Part shown: piece by piece, positions 19,201 through 31,200 of the stretch | Layout: each line of letters starts with the position of its first letter | Position numbering within the stretch: position 1 is the first letter of the stretch | Assembly (NCBI GenBank): GCA_031422435.1 | Contig: JANPLU010000108.1 | Span: 1-58,065 of the forward strand | Origin: Acaryochloridaceae cyanobacterium VAR_48_metabat_390 | GTDB lineage: Bacteria; Cyanobacteriota; Cyanobacteriia; Thermosynechococcales; Thermosynechococcaceae | DNA: 58,065 bases | Direction of reading: 5' to 3' | Program-made: the position numbers

Positions 19201-22200
19201 TCTATAAACTGCCGTTTGATATGGGTGGTATAGAGTTTGAGAACTGGCTGAAAAACAGAGTTCATAGACGGGGTCAACTTCAAAACGATCAATCAATCGG
19301 GCATTCTGCTGGCATTTCTACAACAGATCGCCATAAGCAGGAAAGAGACTTCCAGAATAAACGTATTTAGTCCCTCTAGAGCAAATGCCGTCACCTGCTT
19401 AGCGTTTCATGCATTTAAAAGATATAGTCTTAAAATTTAGTGTTTAGTGAAATTTGAAAACTTCGCCTTAGTACAGAGTGAATGCATTGCTAGCGAATAC
19501 TTTGCCAAGAACAACCGTTGTAGACGTATTAAGGCACAGATCGAACGGTCAGTCGAACCTGACGGGCTATACATTTTTGGTGGATGGTGAAACACAAACC
19601 GTTAGTCTGACCTATCAAGCCCTTGATCTTCAGGCTCGAACGATTGCAGCGCATCTGCAATCCCTCAACGGTTATGGGTCTCGTGCATTACTGTTGTACC
19701 CTCCAGGGTTAGAGTTTATTGCTGCATTCTTGGGCTGTCTCTATGCTGGCGTTACAGCAGTCCCCGCTTCTCCCCAACAGAACCAAAATCGGCAACGATT
19801 ACAGGCCATTGTGGCAGATGCAGATGCGACGTTTGCACTCACAACAGCTGCCTTACTGACGCAAAACAAAGCCCAGTTTAACGACTCTCAAGCATTTCGA
19901 CTGCTTCACTGGATGACAACCGATAACCTGAAAGATGCTGCGTCCGCATGGAACGCGCCGACCTTAAAGGATGACACCATTGCTCTCCTGCAATACACAT
20001 CAGGCTCCACAGGGGCGCCCAAAGGGGTGATGGTGACGCATGACAACCTCATCCATAACGCCACCATGATTCAGGATTGTTTCCAGGATAGCGCCGACAG
20101 CATCGGCGTTTCTTGGCTACCTCCACATCATGACATGGGCTTAATTGGCGGCATTCTCCAGCCACTCTCCATTGGTCGCCCCATGATTTTGATGTCGCCC
20201 ACTGCATTTTTGCGAAAGCCCGTGCGTTGGCTCCAGGCTATTTCTCGATACCGCGCCACAACGAGCGGTGGACCTAACTTTGCCTATGACCTTTGCGTCA
20301 ACAGAATCACCCCCGCAGACTGCGAAACCCTCGATCTCAGCAGTTGGCAAATTGCCTTCAATGGCGCTGAACCCATTCGGCCTCAGACCCTAACGTCTTT
20401 TTCTAAGGCCTTTGAACCCTATGGATTTCATAGCGCTGCGTTTTACCCCTGCTACGGCATGGCAGAAGCAACCTTAATGGTCACGGGCTGCACTCGGATG
20501 AACCCGCCTGTGGTGTGTACCGTTGATGCGATCGCCCTAAAAGACAAACAGGCAATCCCCGTCGAGCATTCACTACAAACGGCTCAAACGATTGTGAGCT
20601 GTGGTCAGGCTCGGCGAGAGAAAAAGGTCATGATTGTTGACCCAAACTCTTTAGAGCCGTGCGAGGACTCTACAGTGGGTGAGATTTGGGTCTCCAGTTT
20701 GAGTGTGGCTCGGGGCTACTGGAACCAGCCGCAAGAAACGGCACGAATTTTTAATGCGTACCTTCATCATTCCCATGAGGGGCCTTTTCTTCGTACAGGT
20801 GATTTAGGGTTTATTCGGGCGGGGGAGCTATTTGTCACGGGTCGGCTTAAGGAACTCATTATTATTCGGGGTCGCAACCACTATCCCCACGATATTGAAT
20901 GGACGGTGCAGTCTAGCCACGCTGCCCTGCGCTCCGGTGGCGGTGCGGCTTTTTCCATTGAGGCCAGTGGCGTTGAGCGCCTTGTAATTATACAAGAGGT
21001 AGAGCGCAGCGCTGTGCGGCAGCTCGCCGCCGCAGAAATCTTTGCTGTGCTGCGCAGAGCCATATCAGAAAATCATCACCTTCAGGTGTACGCGATCGCC
21101 CTCCTAAAGCCCGGCAGCATCCCCAAAACATCCAGTGGCAAAATTCAGCGGACAGAGTGCCGCACTCGTTTTATGGAAGGTAGCTTGGCAACACTAGAGA
21201 CTTGGAGCGAGCGTTCTGTTGACTTTCAGCAGGTGCAGGTCGCAGCAGAAGCAATGCTGAAAACCTTGACTAGTGCGCGACCCTCTCCTTTGTTCGGGAG
21301 CGAAGAATCTAGCAGCAGAACCATCCCAAGTTTGACTACTCCTCCTCTGGCTCCGACCGAAGAAGATATTCAGACTTGGATGACAGCTAATCTTGCCCTT
21401 TATCTTAAGATTCCGCTAGACGACATCGACCTCTCAGAGCCTTTCTCTCATTACGGATTAGACTCTTCGAGTGCGGTCAGTCTTGCGGCTGAACTCTCTA
21501 ACTGGTTGGGGCGTGAACTAGAGCCAACCTTATTTTGGGAATATCCCAGTATTGAAGCTTTAGCCCATCATCTCGGCAGTGCCTAGCCTCATCAAGCCGA
21601 GATGAAATCCATTAGGGCTACATGTCTTTGTTTCAGGATCTAATCGTTATAATGACTTAAAACTTTGCCGAAAGAAGCCTAACGCAACCGTTAGTGCCGA
21701 TTCGGCAGATTGCCTCATCTGAGCTTGAGGGCATTTTGGAATGTTTGACCAGCGCTTTATTTTTTATAGAAAATGCTGAACGAATAAGACTGAAGATATA
21801 AATTCGCCGTCTACTGTAAATGTCTAAGTCTTAAATTTCTAAGGTCTGGTCGGAGCAAAATGCATAAAGAACCTATTGCTGTTATTGGAATTGGCTGCCG
21901 TTTACCAGGAGCCAATAACCCACAGGAATTTTGGAAACTGCTGCACGACAATGTGGATGCCATTACAGAAGTGCCATCGTCCCGATGGGATTTGAATACT
22001 TTTTACGACCCCGACCCGACTCAGCCTCACAAAATGAGTACCCGCTGGGGTGGCTTTTTAGAAAATATTGATCAGTTTGACCCCACTTTTTTTGGCATTA
22101 CGCCCCGTGAAGCCAACACCATCGATCCGCAGCAGCGGCTGATTTTAGAAGTGGCTTGGGAAGCGCTTGAAGATGCAGGGCAGGTGCCATCACGCTTATC

Positions 22201-28200: not shown

Positions 28201-31200
28201 TCAGGCCAGCCTGAACTGCTCTTTCCCCATTACGCTGGCGATGGACTACCCCACGGTCGGTTCTCTCATTAACTACATTGAGCAAGAGGTGCTATCGGCT
28301 GGTTCACCTCCCGTCAACGCTGGTTCAGCGCAGTCTACTTCTGCCCCTCAAGCGTTAGCGGCACCCTCTGCGGTGGAGTCTAGCGCTGCGGCTCAAATGC
28401 TAAACCCGACGGAAGCGTCTCTTAAAGCATCGGGGAATGGTCATCAGCCCTCAATCGCTGGCGCAAATAGATCGGCACAAACCCAAGCGATTCCACCGGA
28501 GTTTTATCAGTTTGAACTGTCGCCAGAGTATCTAAACCTCAAGGAATATCTAGAGCAGGGCAAGAAAATTGGGAATCCCTTTTTTACGGTGCATGACGGC
28601 ATTGCAAAAGACACCACGTCCATTGAAGGACAAGATGTTGTTAATTTCTCCAGCTATAACTACTTAGGGCTGTCAGGCGATCCAGCGGTTTCTGAAGCCT
28701 CAAAAGCTGCCATTGATCGCTATGGCACTTCGGTTTCAGCCAGCCGAGTGGTGTCAGGGGAGCGCTCCATTCACCAAGATTTAGAACGGGCGATCGCCGA
28801 TTTCCTCGGCACCGAAGACTGCATTGTCTACATTGGCGGACACACCACCAACGTCAGCACCATTGGGCATCTGTTCGGTAAAAATGACCTGATTGTGTGT
28901 GACGCCCTTAGCCACAACAGCGTTCAGATTGGCTGTAAGCTTTCGGGTGCAACCACCATTTCATTTGTGCATAATGACATGCGATCGCTAGAGAGCATCC
29001 TTCAGTCGCATCGCCATGAATTTGAAAAGGTACTGATTGCTGTTGAGGGCGTCTACAGCGCCGACGGCGATTTAGCGCCACTGCCAGAGATTATTGAACT
29101 CAAGAAACGCTTTAAGACCTTTTTACTGGTTGATGAAGCCCATTCAATTGGGGCAGTGGGGCATGAGGGGCGTGGCGTGGGAGAACACTTTGGGGTTGCC
29201 CGTACCGATGTTGACTTGTGGATGGGCACCTTAAGCAAATCCTTTGCAAGCTGCGGGGGCTACATTGGAGCCTCCACCGTAATGGTGGAGTACCTCAAAT
29301 ACACCTCCCCTGGATTTGTCTACAGCGTGGGGATGACTCCCTCCAATGCAGCATCCGCGTTAGTGGCGCTTCAAAGGCTCCAAGCAGAGCCGGATCGGGT
29401 CACGCGACTGCAAGAGCGCACCTTACTGTTTTTGTCTTTGGCAAAAGAACAGGGGTTCGATACGGGCACCAGTCACGACTCGCCTGTGGTGCCCATTATT
29501 ATTGGCGACCCCTATAAAGCAGTGCAGCTTTCTCAGGCGATGCTGCTGCGCGGCGTTAATGCTCAGCCGATGATTTATCCTTCTGTACCCTATGACGCGG
29601 CGCGTCTGCGGTTCTTTTTGAGCTGTGACCACACCGAGGCGCAAATTCGACAGACCATCACAATTCTGGCGGAGGAAATTGCAAAGATGGAGGGCATCAC
29701 AAAGAATAGCAACGACTGGCTGCATTATCTAATGCGATCGCAGTTTGTAGCGGATAAGGCCGCAGATCGACCTGAGCAGTCATCGCCAAAATCTTCGAGA
29801 GATTCTACTCTCCGTGAAGCGGGATAGGAAGGGTGGGGGTGATTTCACTTCACTCCCACGGTCAGTATCGAAGGTTTACCGAATCTACAAAATTAGCGAC
29901 CCAACTTATTAGGGATATTGCCACAGCCCCCCGCAATAGTACCTCGGGTTTTAGAGCCGCCCCAAGCGCAGCAGTAGTAATGTTGCTCTTGCGAGAGGTT
30001 TTTGACCTGGCTCAAGTCTGCACCTTCAATCACGGCTCCTGTATAGGCTCCAGTGCTGTAGTTTGGCGCGTTAATGCGATCACGGGGGCTGGCAGTCTCC
30101 GCATCTCCATGAAACAAACAGGCGCGAGACAAATCGGCCTGTTTGAGGTTAGCCCCCAACAGCAGCGCCCGTGAGAGGTTCGCGCGGGTGAGGTCGCAGG
30201 CCGCCAAGCTAATGTTGGTTAGGTTTGCTTCGCTCAGTTCTGTAGAGCGTAGATCGCTATTGGACAGATCTGCCCCTGCCAACATATTGGTGAGGTCAAT
30301 GACTCTTACCCCGTATTCAATATCTTCTTCATAGCCCCCCAACCCATCAAAAATAGGGCGACCCAAACGGCGATCGCGTTTTAAAGGCGTGAGCAACTTC
30401 GCACTTGACAAAAACCGGATCACCTTGGCCTTCCCCTCGCCATCTAACCCCGTCAAAATCGCCGCCGTGCGCCCTTCGGCGATCGCCCGTTCGGGAGGCC
30501 AGTCTTCTAAAAGACCTTCTTCATCTAGCACTAGGTCAGAAATACCTTGAAAATAAGCGTCAATAGTCTGCTGCTGAGTGATGCGATTTTGTTGACTGGT
30601 CAGGTCTTTAGAAATAACGTACTGTCGCCACGCCACATAGAGCGCCAAAAAAGCGACCGAGATTTGTCCAATCGCCCCAAAAACTTCGCCAAGCGCACTC
30701 AGTGCCTCCCAGTTAATGCCGCGATTGCCGGGGGCAAGCTGATCGGTTGCCCCACTAAACCGAAGCAGCCCAATGATGCTAAATAGCGTAATTGCCCCCG
30801 CCGCAATAATCATTTGCAGGGGACGGGGAATCCATTCATTAACGGCGGCGACCAGGACAGGCCAAAGCACGCGAATGGCCAAGGCGATCGCCACCAAAGC
30901 CGCCGGAATGCCGAGCCAAGGCAAATGGAGAAATAGCGCAACACCCAGTACGGCTGTGGCTGCGGCTGCAATTGCTAGTAGTGACCATACTTCAGGGCCT
31001 GAGCCGTTGAGAGAAGTCAACGTTTTAGAGCGATACAAGGGCGCTAGGACTAAGGAAGCGTCTTCCTTAAGACCGGAGCTAAATTCATTTTCTGGGTTAG
31101 AAGAATTGGGCGGAGGCGGATTATTCATCCAGGTTTTTATAGACGAAAAACTACAGGTATATTACTCTGAGCGGTCAAATATAGCATTCAGCAATCCAGA

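Follow-up and report, generated by a model that had tools for sequence, protein, structure and literature searches.

The question raised by this locus is whether a cyanobacterium can assemble a sphingoid-type long-chain base on a single polyketide synthase (PKS) polypeptide. The window (the whole stretch of DNA analysed, 58,065 nucleotides from Acaryochloridaceae cyanobacterium VAR_48_metabat_390) carries two genes that the survey's finding had presented as a conserved orphan unit. We consider it likely that they include a thioesterase-less megasynthase building such a base, a putative fused cyanobacterial variant of the SgaAB(C)/rkpAGH-type route. Together with an unlinked reductase, the fused protein probably provides this and many other cyanobacteria with sphingolipid-type lipids.

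Domain organization and distribution of the fused gene

Both frames are open and intact, and the arrangement described earlier, a FAAL-ACP protein followed by a PKS fused to an alpha-oxoamine synthase (AOS), is borne out. The first gene (19478..21586, forward strand) encodes a 702-aa didomain protein with Pfam AMP-binding (aa 31-415) and PP-binding (aa 638-699) matches. Its adenylation domain is a FAAL, with 7r7e/f/g as the best PDB chains (E 2.6e-186), solved FAALs next, and FAAL models at the top in NCBIfam. The second gene (21860..29827, forward strand), delineated by its open reading frame and Pfam, encodes a 2655-aa type I PKS of the order KS-AT-DH-ER-KR-ACP fused to the AOS. Its domains, all on the forward strand, were placed by Pfam and, apart from the ER, by motifs: KS (aa 4-373, 21869..22978; C170/H305/H345), AT (aa 532-836, 23453..24367; S623, GHSVG, HAFH), DH (aa 902-1186, 24563..25417; H934/D1106), ER (aa 1474-1773, 26279..27178), KR (aa 1790-1967, 27227..27760; Y1937), ACP (aa 2075-2140, 28082..28279; S2104), and the PLP-dependent AOS (Aminotran_1_2, aa 2259-2600, 28502..29710; K2460, DEAH). 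We take GHSVG and HAFH to be malonyl-type AT motifs, and the roles of the KS, AT, DH, KR, ACP, and AOS motifs are likewise assigned from general knowledge. The catalytic motifs of these six domains are present and are conserved across 29 full-length fused proteins, showing at the sequence level that all domains are intact and that the fused family is conserved. The PKS-AOS protein has neither a thioesterase nor an N-terminal docking segment.

The 273-bp spacer between the two genes is non-coding and contains in-frame stops. The genes are in frame with each other in three genomes, yet the notion of a single broken gene was rejected because stops are numerous in the spacer and its length is not constant. 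A promoter scan of 19200-22000 gave matches at chance level only.

The description of a widespread conserved family stands as regards conservation and the uncharacterized state of the family; its frequency differs between samples, from 25 of 300 genomes in the earlier one to 5 of 401 in a phylum-wide sample that includes this genome. A literature search returned no paper that describes the fused family of cyanobacteria, and the supplements of PMC11334938 may list cyanobacterial Spt-like matches. The main text of Calteau 2014 contains neither "oxononanoate" nor "FAAL".

Relatives of the AOS domain and the predicted chemistry

One argument for a serine palmitoyltransferase (SPT) had been the ranking of PDB matches. 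The ranking is reproducible (3a2b, E 6.1e-71; human SPTLC2, 1.9e-70) but has no discriminating power, because BioF of the same genome matches the Sphingobacterium SPT 3a2b better (2.2e-76), a control that rules out the best PDB match as proof of SPT identity. Against the Bacteroidota SPT model this BioF scores 329 bits and the window AOS 332. The window AOS falls under every NCBIfam SPT cut-off (332/640, 305/500, and 240/670 bits, score/cut-off), and its top-scoring NCBIfam model is that of BioF. It is nevertheless not a BioF by TIGR00858 (350 < 426 bits) and is fused rather than stand-alone; a separate BioF gene in the genome reaches 460 bits with this model.

The reading of a sphingoid-type base as the product loses this support and holds instead through the AOS clade and the reductase described below. 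In the tree, the window AOS lies in an 80-row clade (SH-aLRT 100) together with 17 PKS-linked enzymes of Pseudomonas, Bordetella, Burkholderia, and Sinorhizobium (48-57% identity), with BioF, KBL, and the canonical SPTs falling elsewhere; the 20 fused rows from cyanobacteria group together (support 97). It thus falls in one clade with putative SgaB/WcbT/RkpG-type enzymes, with SgaB represented by Pseudomonas stand-ins, as the PfSgaB sequence itself is absent from the tree. The clade is not uniform, since it also holds AOS genes beside methyltransferases in Microcystis and Nostoc, with FemAB-like and oxidoreductase genes, and in Bacillus and Streptomyces clusters, and since the reductase is absent from 8 of the 24 clade-positive genomes in the 401-genome sample.

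The "orphan" label applies to the family itself, but a close characterized system exists in PfSgaA/SgaB/SgaC of Pseudomonas fluorescens MYb115 (Peters et al. 2025, PMC12134224), where PfSgaB is a proven SPT with a near-exclusive preference for serine. Pseudomonas, Bordetella, Burkholderia, and Sinorhizobium are the genera that head the list of SgaAB homologs in that report (PMC12134224). Both systems combine a one-module reducing type I PKS lacking a thioesterase with AOS release and a KDSR-like reductase, and besides the AOS identities given above, the KS is 46% identical to that of a Pseudomonas stand-in PKS. Unlike PfSga, where PKS and AOS are separate genes, the window joins them in one 2655-aa frame; in its lineage a probable FAAL-ACP loader stands in front, the window has no capsule genes, and the reductase belongs to another subfamily and is unlinked. 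The genus table of 6,101 Sga clusters (PMC12134224) contains no cyanobacterial genus, and a two-gene cluster search may overlook fusions.

The single C2 extension proposed earlier cannot be taken as given: SgaA is reported to act iteratively (PMC12134224), and all 29 fused proteins start at the KS, as SgaA/RkpA-type proteins do, an arrangement that is compatible with iterative extension but says no more. With the acyl group on the KS, the module would carry out a single fully reducing malonyl extension or, more probably and in the manner of SgaA, a series of them. The fused AOS would then condense the ACP-bound chain with an amino acid, L-serine being the likeliest, and with loss of CO2 release it as a 3-ketodihydrosphinganine. 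PLP-dependent condensation of acyl-ACP with an amino acid is also the reaction of the canonical Spt-bCerS-CerR system (PMC9386255, PMC11334938), from which the window differs in that its AOS lies outside the canonical SPT group and the bCerS homolog goes with another AOS clade.

It is unlikely, though conceivable, that the same assembly line and reductase use glycine, alanine, cysteate, or another amino acid and yield 1-deoxy-type or other amino-alcohol lipids. The substrate is unreadable from motifs; the active-site motifs of the window AOS are common to the SgaB-type group, from which the fused group deviates in GGH versus SGH and STDG versus SMDG. Natural-product AOS enzymes use many amino acids (e.g., RedL glycine, SxtA arginine, Fum8 alanine), a variety that favors such a substrate, whereas the only clade member that has been assayed, if the stand-ins represent it correctly, is specific for serine, and the glycosyltransferases recurring in the clusters fit a C1 hydroxyl. 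RedL (undecylprodigiosin) and SxtA (saxitoxin) are megasynthases that end in an AOS and, like the window protein, use it fused to a carrier as chain-release domain, RedL also starting with a fatty-acid ligase; unlike the window system, they have no fully reducing module and no KDSR partner, and their amino acids and products are others.

In the loci compared here we take the PKS-AOS-SDR run to be rkpA-rkpG-rkpH in Sinorhizobium and wcbR-wcbT-wcbP in Burkholderia. This genome shares the trio (AOS 46.5% and SDR 41% identical), which stands as separate genes inside capsule loci there and is fused without kps genes in the window. Because an rkp-type locus places the trio amid capsule genes (PMC3908369), and many fused loci have GT4, GT39, GT2, and ExoD genes as neighbors, the base might anchor or carry a surface polysaccharide, the role proposed for the rkp/wcb loci, instead of being a bulk membrane sphingolipid. 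We regard this as rather improbable: neither near the window genes nor among the neighbor families found in at least 3 of 101 loci is there a kps-type export or capsule family, and capsule synthesis or export genes beside PKS-AOS (-SDR), as in rkp-1/wcb, were found in neither the window nor the recurrent neighbor families.

A candidate reductase, a probable loader, and a second AOS pathway

No reductase adjoins the two genes, as had been noted, but the partner is not missing: a 3-ketodihydrosphingosine-reductase (KDSR)-like SDR is encoded on another contig of this genome (G000:C113:21261-22085). Its best PDB match is the Cryptococcus KDSR Tsc10 (8jat, E 4.9e-32; next best 1.7e-25), and it shares 41% identity with the SDR that follows the PKS-AOS pair of S. 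meliloti and only 31% with that of the Pseudomonas cluster. Among 36 genomes whose PKS-AOS is fused or cut by a contig end, 34 have the SDR (the two misses being a 0.9-Mb bin and one MAG), as against 21 of 401 sampled genomes. Within the 401-genome sample, it is present in all 5 fused genomes, and the AOS clade is found in 16 of the 21 SDR genomes, where 1.3 would be expected under independence, although related genomes are not independent. Four of the 5 SDR genomes lacking the clade have the SDR beside a more SPT-like AOS in an 1100-aa frame, and 14 of 36 SDR loci have an AOS of the window-AOS clade upstream at a distance of no more than 6 kb. In Altericista (L029) the SDR (78%) directly follows the PKS, and an adjacency is seen in L271 as well. 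Such an SDR would reduce 3-ketodihydrosphinganine to a sphinganine-type amino alcohol. That it lies on a separate contig in this genome and apart from the PKS-AOS in most fused loci would also suit an unrelated SDR and a free or cyclized amino-ketone (a CAI-1-like signal or alkyl-pyrroline); this is very improbable given the co-occurrence and adjacencies above, a KDSR as the nearest structural relative, and CqsA as only a distant match of the AOS (E 6e-26).

For the sphingoid base favored here, the fatty acid would in this lineage be adenylated by the FAAL and loaded onto its own ACP. The FAAL-ACP probably supplies the starter in this lineage alone, and the "two-gene unit" does not generalize: a FAAL-ACP stands directly upstream of the PKS in 3 of 28 full-length loci; by lineage, 5 of 6 genomes of this one have it there and 0 of 24 loci outside. 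Since most relatives have no adjacent loader, priming of their PKS would have to occur in trans or through another module. Starter chain length is not predictable from FAAL trees (PMC12820801).

A GH3-family amide ligase, recognized by profile matches (17568..19292, reverse strand), lies head-to-head with the FAAL-ACP gene. Its presence there is not random: GH3 tracks a second AOS pathway and elsewhere lies within a cluster of AOS2, GNAT, epimerase, Rieske, and MFS genes. This genome encodes a YghO/bCerS homolog and an epimerase-type reductase. The bCerS homolog (GNAT) tracks the AOS2 clade rather than the fused-PKS AOS clade, being present, accompanied by AOS2, in 13 of 36 fused-PKS genomes and missing from 23. 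Judged by gene context, GH3 and the ceramide-synthase homolog belong to this second pathway, and a link of GH3 to the PKS is putative. This genome is the only one without AOS2 among 28 GNAT-positive genomes; MFS and AOS2 are gone from their usual site, beside a frame that we take to be of the IS4-like family, through recent loss or an unassembled move. PKS-AOS as a stand-in for the SPT of the ceramide-synthase operon was rejected, because AOS2 is kept in 5 of 5 close relatives and most fused-PKS genomes have no GNAT.

It is also possible, if somewhat doubtful, that the FAAL-ACP serves the GH3/AOS2 pathway while the PKS is primed in trans or iterates from a short starter, which would be compatible with a sphingoid product. 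In addition to the 0 of 24 outside loci, the window and the 4 relatives in which this was seen have the FAAL-ACP and GH3 genes head-to-head; in a close relative (G404) the FAAL-ACP is parted from the PKS yet remains with GH3; and canonical SPTs use a dedicated ligase-ACP pair (PMC9386255). The counterevidence is that FAAL-ACP and PKS lie on one strand 273 bp apart in an order kept in 5 of 6 lineage genomes, that the FAAL-ACP is intact here although the genome is without AOS2, and that several AOS2 genomes have a stand-alone FAAL only.

Stand-alone FAALs form an 18-row clade recurring in relatives' clusters, including G000:C102, where one lies beside GT4 and fatty-acid hydroxylase genes. The fused-PKS clusters of relatives repeatedly contain GT4, GT39, hydroxylase, and stand-alone FAAL genes.

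Sphingolipids in cyanobacteria

The survey knew of no sphingoid lipid from cyanobacteria; two cyanobacterial ceramides have in fact been reported (PMC8895605). According to that 2022 study, neither a genetic basis nor a sphingolipid enzyme had been reported for cyanobacteria, and its authors found none in Nostoc punctiforme. A cerebroside is reported from Moorea (PMC6272925); no Moorena record is among the matches listed for the loci of interest. A link to nocuolin was discarded, with no sign of NocF being an AOS in the available text of PMC9486936.

The fused family supplies concrete candidate genes for this question. The chemistry itself is already known; if the assignment is true, a single-polypeptide version in phototrophs would join the PKS-based sphingolipid route that has been demonstrated once (2025), and the assignment of producers of sphingoid lipids in mats, crusts, and sediments would be affected. 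Later N-acylation and glycosylation of the base are plausible, given the genes recurring nearby. A wider proposal, which in its entirety we hold to be improbable, would give cyanobacteria at least three unrecognized, patchy sphingolipid routes (one through this AOS clade, fused to PKS or FAAL and paired with a eukaryote-type KDSR; one through a second FAAL-ACP-AOS that stands nearer to canonical SPTs and shares this KDSR; and one through AOS2 and the bCerS homolog), with the fused-PKS route leading to very-long-chain glycosyl-ceramides without a ceramide synthase, the base being N-acylated by a stand-alone FAAL-type ligase. The distribution of the family predicts which strains should be negative for sphingoid lipids, and the cultured strains that carry it are Altericista sp. 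CCNU0014, Xenococcus sp. PCC 7305, Planktothrix agardhii NIVA-CYA126/8 (plasmid p3), Chlorogloea sp. CCALA 695, and Leptolyngbya sp. JSC-1.

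The loader and the fused synthase

The two frames claimed in the survey's finding are real and intact, both reading open: a 702-aa fatty acyl-AMP ligase plus ACP (FAAL-ACP; 19478-21586, + strand; Pfam AMP-binding and ACP, with an adenylation domain of the FAAL type) and, across a non-coding spacer of 273 bp, a 2655-aa polyketide synthase (PKS) fused to an alpha-oxoamine synthase (AOS) (21860-29827, + strand; Pfam KS-AT-DH-ER-KR-ACP-aminotransferase I/II). The catalytic motifs of KS, AT, DH, ER, KR and ACP and the PLP lysine, with the functional roles that we take them to have, are all found here and are conserved in 29 full-length fused proteins, with single variants only (e.g., one QAFH in the AT). 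The surroundings are housekeeping genes (proC, sepF, glcE/F-type genes), and no GC shift was seen across the window. Among the GTDB matches listed, the nearest AOS relatives are those of Altericista sp. CCNU0014 and Thermosynechococcaceae/Acaryochloridaceae MAGs (89-97% for the AOS).

The survey's view of the two genes as a unit fits this lineage, where five of six genomes keep the order FAAL-ACP-PKS (in the exception, genome G404, the FAAL-ACP remains beside a GH3 gene and the PKS lies elsewhere), but not the wider family: directly upstream of 28 full-length fused loci stand a FAAL-ACP in 3, another PKS module in 4 and neither in 21. Every fused protein starts at the KS, and FAALs occur somewhere in 39/39 fused-PKS genomes searched and in 0/4 same-family genomes without the system. 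From these upstream-gene counts, the lineage order and FAAL presence, the fused PKS here is likely primed by the adjacent FAAL-ACP, but such priming is not a family trait. Several relatives carry 2-oxo-acid chain-elongation genes next to the fusion, along with a second PKS that is primed differently; starters probably vary.

Placement of the oxoamine synthase and its reductase

The ranking of PDB matches, on which the survey chiefly based its serine palmitoyltransferase (SPT) assignment, is not accepted here as key evidence, since the BioF of this genome, which passes the TIGR00858 cut-off, matches the Sphingobacterium SPT better (2.2e-76) than does the AOS domain, whose best PDB match it is (6.1e-71). 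Belton et al. (PMC8895605) describe the like for the BioF of Nostoc punctiforme, an enzyme in which they found no SPT activity. The AOS domain falls below every cut-off of the NCBIfam models, and the match to human SPTLC2 alone separates it (1.9e-70) from BioF (2e-47).

In a 401-genome phylum sample, the AOS clade (E <= 1e-80) was found in 24 genomes, in five of which, including this one, it is fused to a PKS. A GTDB scan gave 123 relatives, and 80 of them were retained. In the set of 101 stretches, the AOS is fused to a KR-bearing PKS in 38 (the two myxobacterial ones without ER), takes the form FAAL-ACP-AOS in 22, is stand-alone or ACP-AOS in 37, belongs to other PKS fusions in 2 and has an unresolved architecture in 2. 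In a 108-row tree (a quick IQ-TREE run with SH-aLRT support only), all 20 rows of fused cyanobacterial proteins fall into a single group (support 97) within an 80-row clade (support 100), which is separate from BioF, KBL and canonical SPTs. This clade includes 17 PKS-linked enzymes from Pseudomonas, Bordetella, Burkholderia, Sinorhizobium and others (support 99; 48-57% identity to the window's AOS), and annotated examples of these are PKS-AOS-reductase runs amid capsule genes.

The survey reported no reductase next to the PKS. The gene is indeed unlinked here, but a short-chain reductase resembling 3-ketodihydrosphingosine reductase (KDSR-like SDR) lies on another contig (C113:21261-22085), with 78% identity to its ortholog directly behind the PKS in Altericista (locus L029). 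Among solved structures it matches Tsc10, a fungal 3-ketodihydrosphingosine reductase, best (8jat, 4.9e-32; next 1.7e-25). Its identity to the SDR that follows the PKS-AOS pair of S. meliloti is 41%, but to the Pseudomonas one 31%. It is present in 34/36 genomes selected for a fused PKS-AOS (six loci split or cut by contig ends) and in only 21/401 of the phylum sample; 16 of those 21 have the window's AOS clade, including all five fused genomes, and in four of the other five the SDR adjoins another AOS (a 1100-aa frame grouping with canonical SPTs). Of 36 SDR loci, 14 have an AOS from the window's clade upstream. Absence of the SDR from 8 of the 24 AOS-clade-positive genomes, among them methyltransferase-linked and more divergent members, counts against uniform pairing. 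Counts are given rather than p-values because related genomes are not independent. The strongest case for reduction of the ketone to a sphinganine-type base comes from this pattern of occurrence.

The Pseudomonas, Bordetella, Burkholderia and Sinorhizobium-type genera of the tree are those topping the PfSgaAB homolog table (PMC12134224), which lists no cyanobacterial genera; since PfSgaB is not among the loci compared, its link to the window's AOS is built on stand-ins. In Pseudomonas fluorescens, PfSgaAB makes sphinganines of C24-C28 with an iterative PKS and an AOS of near-exclusive serine preference, and SgaC, which resembles KDSR, is a proposed member of the system (PMC12134224). The system described here would work like SgaAB(C) and Sinorhizobium rkpAGH without being a plain member: it is a fusion, it is cyanobacterial, and its reductase belongs to another KDSR-like subfamily. 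We consider a serine-derived sphinganine-type base the probable product, and the use of another amino acid by the same system rather unlikely. The chemistry already has a 2025 precedent. No description of the fused cyanobacterial family was found in literature searches, nor is it named in the main text of Calteau 2014 (additional files aside). The survey knew of no sphingoid lipid from cyanobacteria; two ceramides are in fact on record, reported without genes (PMC8895605; PMC6272925), and with the present system the question of which genes underlie sphingolipids in cyanobacteria can be tested directly.

As a separate observation, the AOS domain (28502-29710) matches human SPTLC2 (1.9e-70) as well as it does the bacterial SPT and has the SYNYLG motif in common with SPTLC2, unlike BioF; together with the Tsc10-like reductase, this invites comparison with eukaryotic LCB2.

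A second, ceramide-type candidate pathway

On contig C56, a GNAT resembling bacterial ceramide synthase (bCerS) and YghO (51590-52735, - strand) is followed by an epimerase-type reductase, the pair spanning C56:50616-52735 (L125:6617-8736, - strand). The GNAT has 33% full-length identity both to E. coli YghO, a listed ceramide N-acyltransferase homolog (PMC9386255), and to a Roseomonas gene of a Caulobacter-type sphingolipid cluster. In other cyanobacteria the cluster also holds a second, different AOS (AOS2; 25-28% identity to the window's AOS, with 265 relatives in GTDB), a Rieske oxygenase, an MFS transporter, a GH3 gene and a fatty-acid-hydroxylase-type gene, and the AOS2-GNAT-epimerase-Rieske-MFS-GH3 set is a candidate ceramide-type pathway. 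GNAT and AOS2 occur together in 27/28 and 17/17 genomes, the single exception being this genome, where MFS and AOS2 are missing and the other cluster genes are intact. Where relatives carry these two genes, C59:22258-23484 holds a transposase frame that is presumably IS4-like.

GH3 is found in 19/20 AOS2-positive versus 0/27 AOS2-negative genomes, and the window's GH3 (17568..19292, - strand) is an ortholog (61%) of the cluster gene. The GNAT/AOS2 cluster is a second pathway, separate from the PKS route. The idea that the PKS-AOS replaces AOS2 is refuted by the presence of AOS2 in 5/5 close relatives and the absence of the GNAT from 23/36 fused-PKS genomes. Members of the two routes adjoin here, GH3 by FAAL-ACP and Rieske by SDR, which may reflect coupling or chance. 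The SDR stands head-to-head with the Rieske ortholog at C113:21261-24038 (L126:7262-10039), a pairing that did not turn up in those few loci of relatives that extend to that side.

Later steps and related clusters

Genes recurring at fused loci are GT4 (7 loci), GT39-like (7), an OlsC/LpxO-like hydroxylase, ExoD and SRPBCC, and Planktothrix plasmid p3 holds a FAAL, two GT39, a GT4 and two PKSs together. In a FastTree of FAALs from the loci analysed here, 18 stand-alone cluster FAALs form a single group (support 97), including one on contig C102 of this genome that adjoins a GT4 ortholog and a fatty-acid hydroxylase gene; that these FAALs N-acylate the base is a guess. The C102 stretch (25285-34655; L127:5286-14656) carries an MFS gene, the hydroxylase, two GT4, the FAAL and an ABC transporter, and its GT4 and FAAL have orthologs in other genomes that adjoin PKS-AOS or FAAL-ACP-AOS.

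A third cyanobacterial AOS type (L238-L241; genomes G334, G174, G131 and G192) is a FAAL-ACP-AOS of about 1100 aa that reaches 440-449 bits against the SPT model for Bacteroidota, groups with canonical SPTs and directly adjoins a KDSR-like SDR. FAAL-ACP-AOS with a KDSR-like SDR, GT28 genes and a second FAAL (L069, L120-L122, L276, L279-L291, L294) occurs in Nostocales and elsewhere, for example in Chlorogloeopsis fritschii PCC 6912 and Richelia sinica; this cluster, PKS-free, self-loading and SPT-like, is a candidate for making glycosphingolipids. In Microcystis and Nostoc (L055, L057, L114, L115, L033, L034), a methyltransferase and an exporter of the DevBCA type accompany the AOS clade; the KDSR-like SDR is absent from those variant genomes searched, and they probably make another product. 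In Planctomycetota, Verrucomicrobiota, Acidobacteriota and Syntrophobacteraceae (L053, L077, L083, L085, L092, L097, L098, L103), the window's AOS clade, mostly as FAAL-ACP-AOS, adjoins a bCerS-like GNAT.
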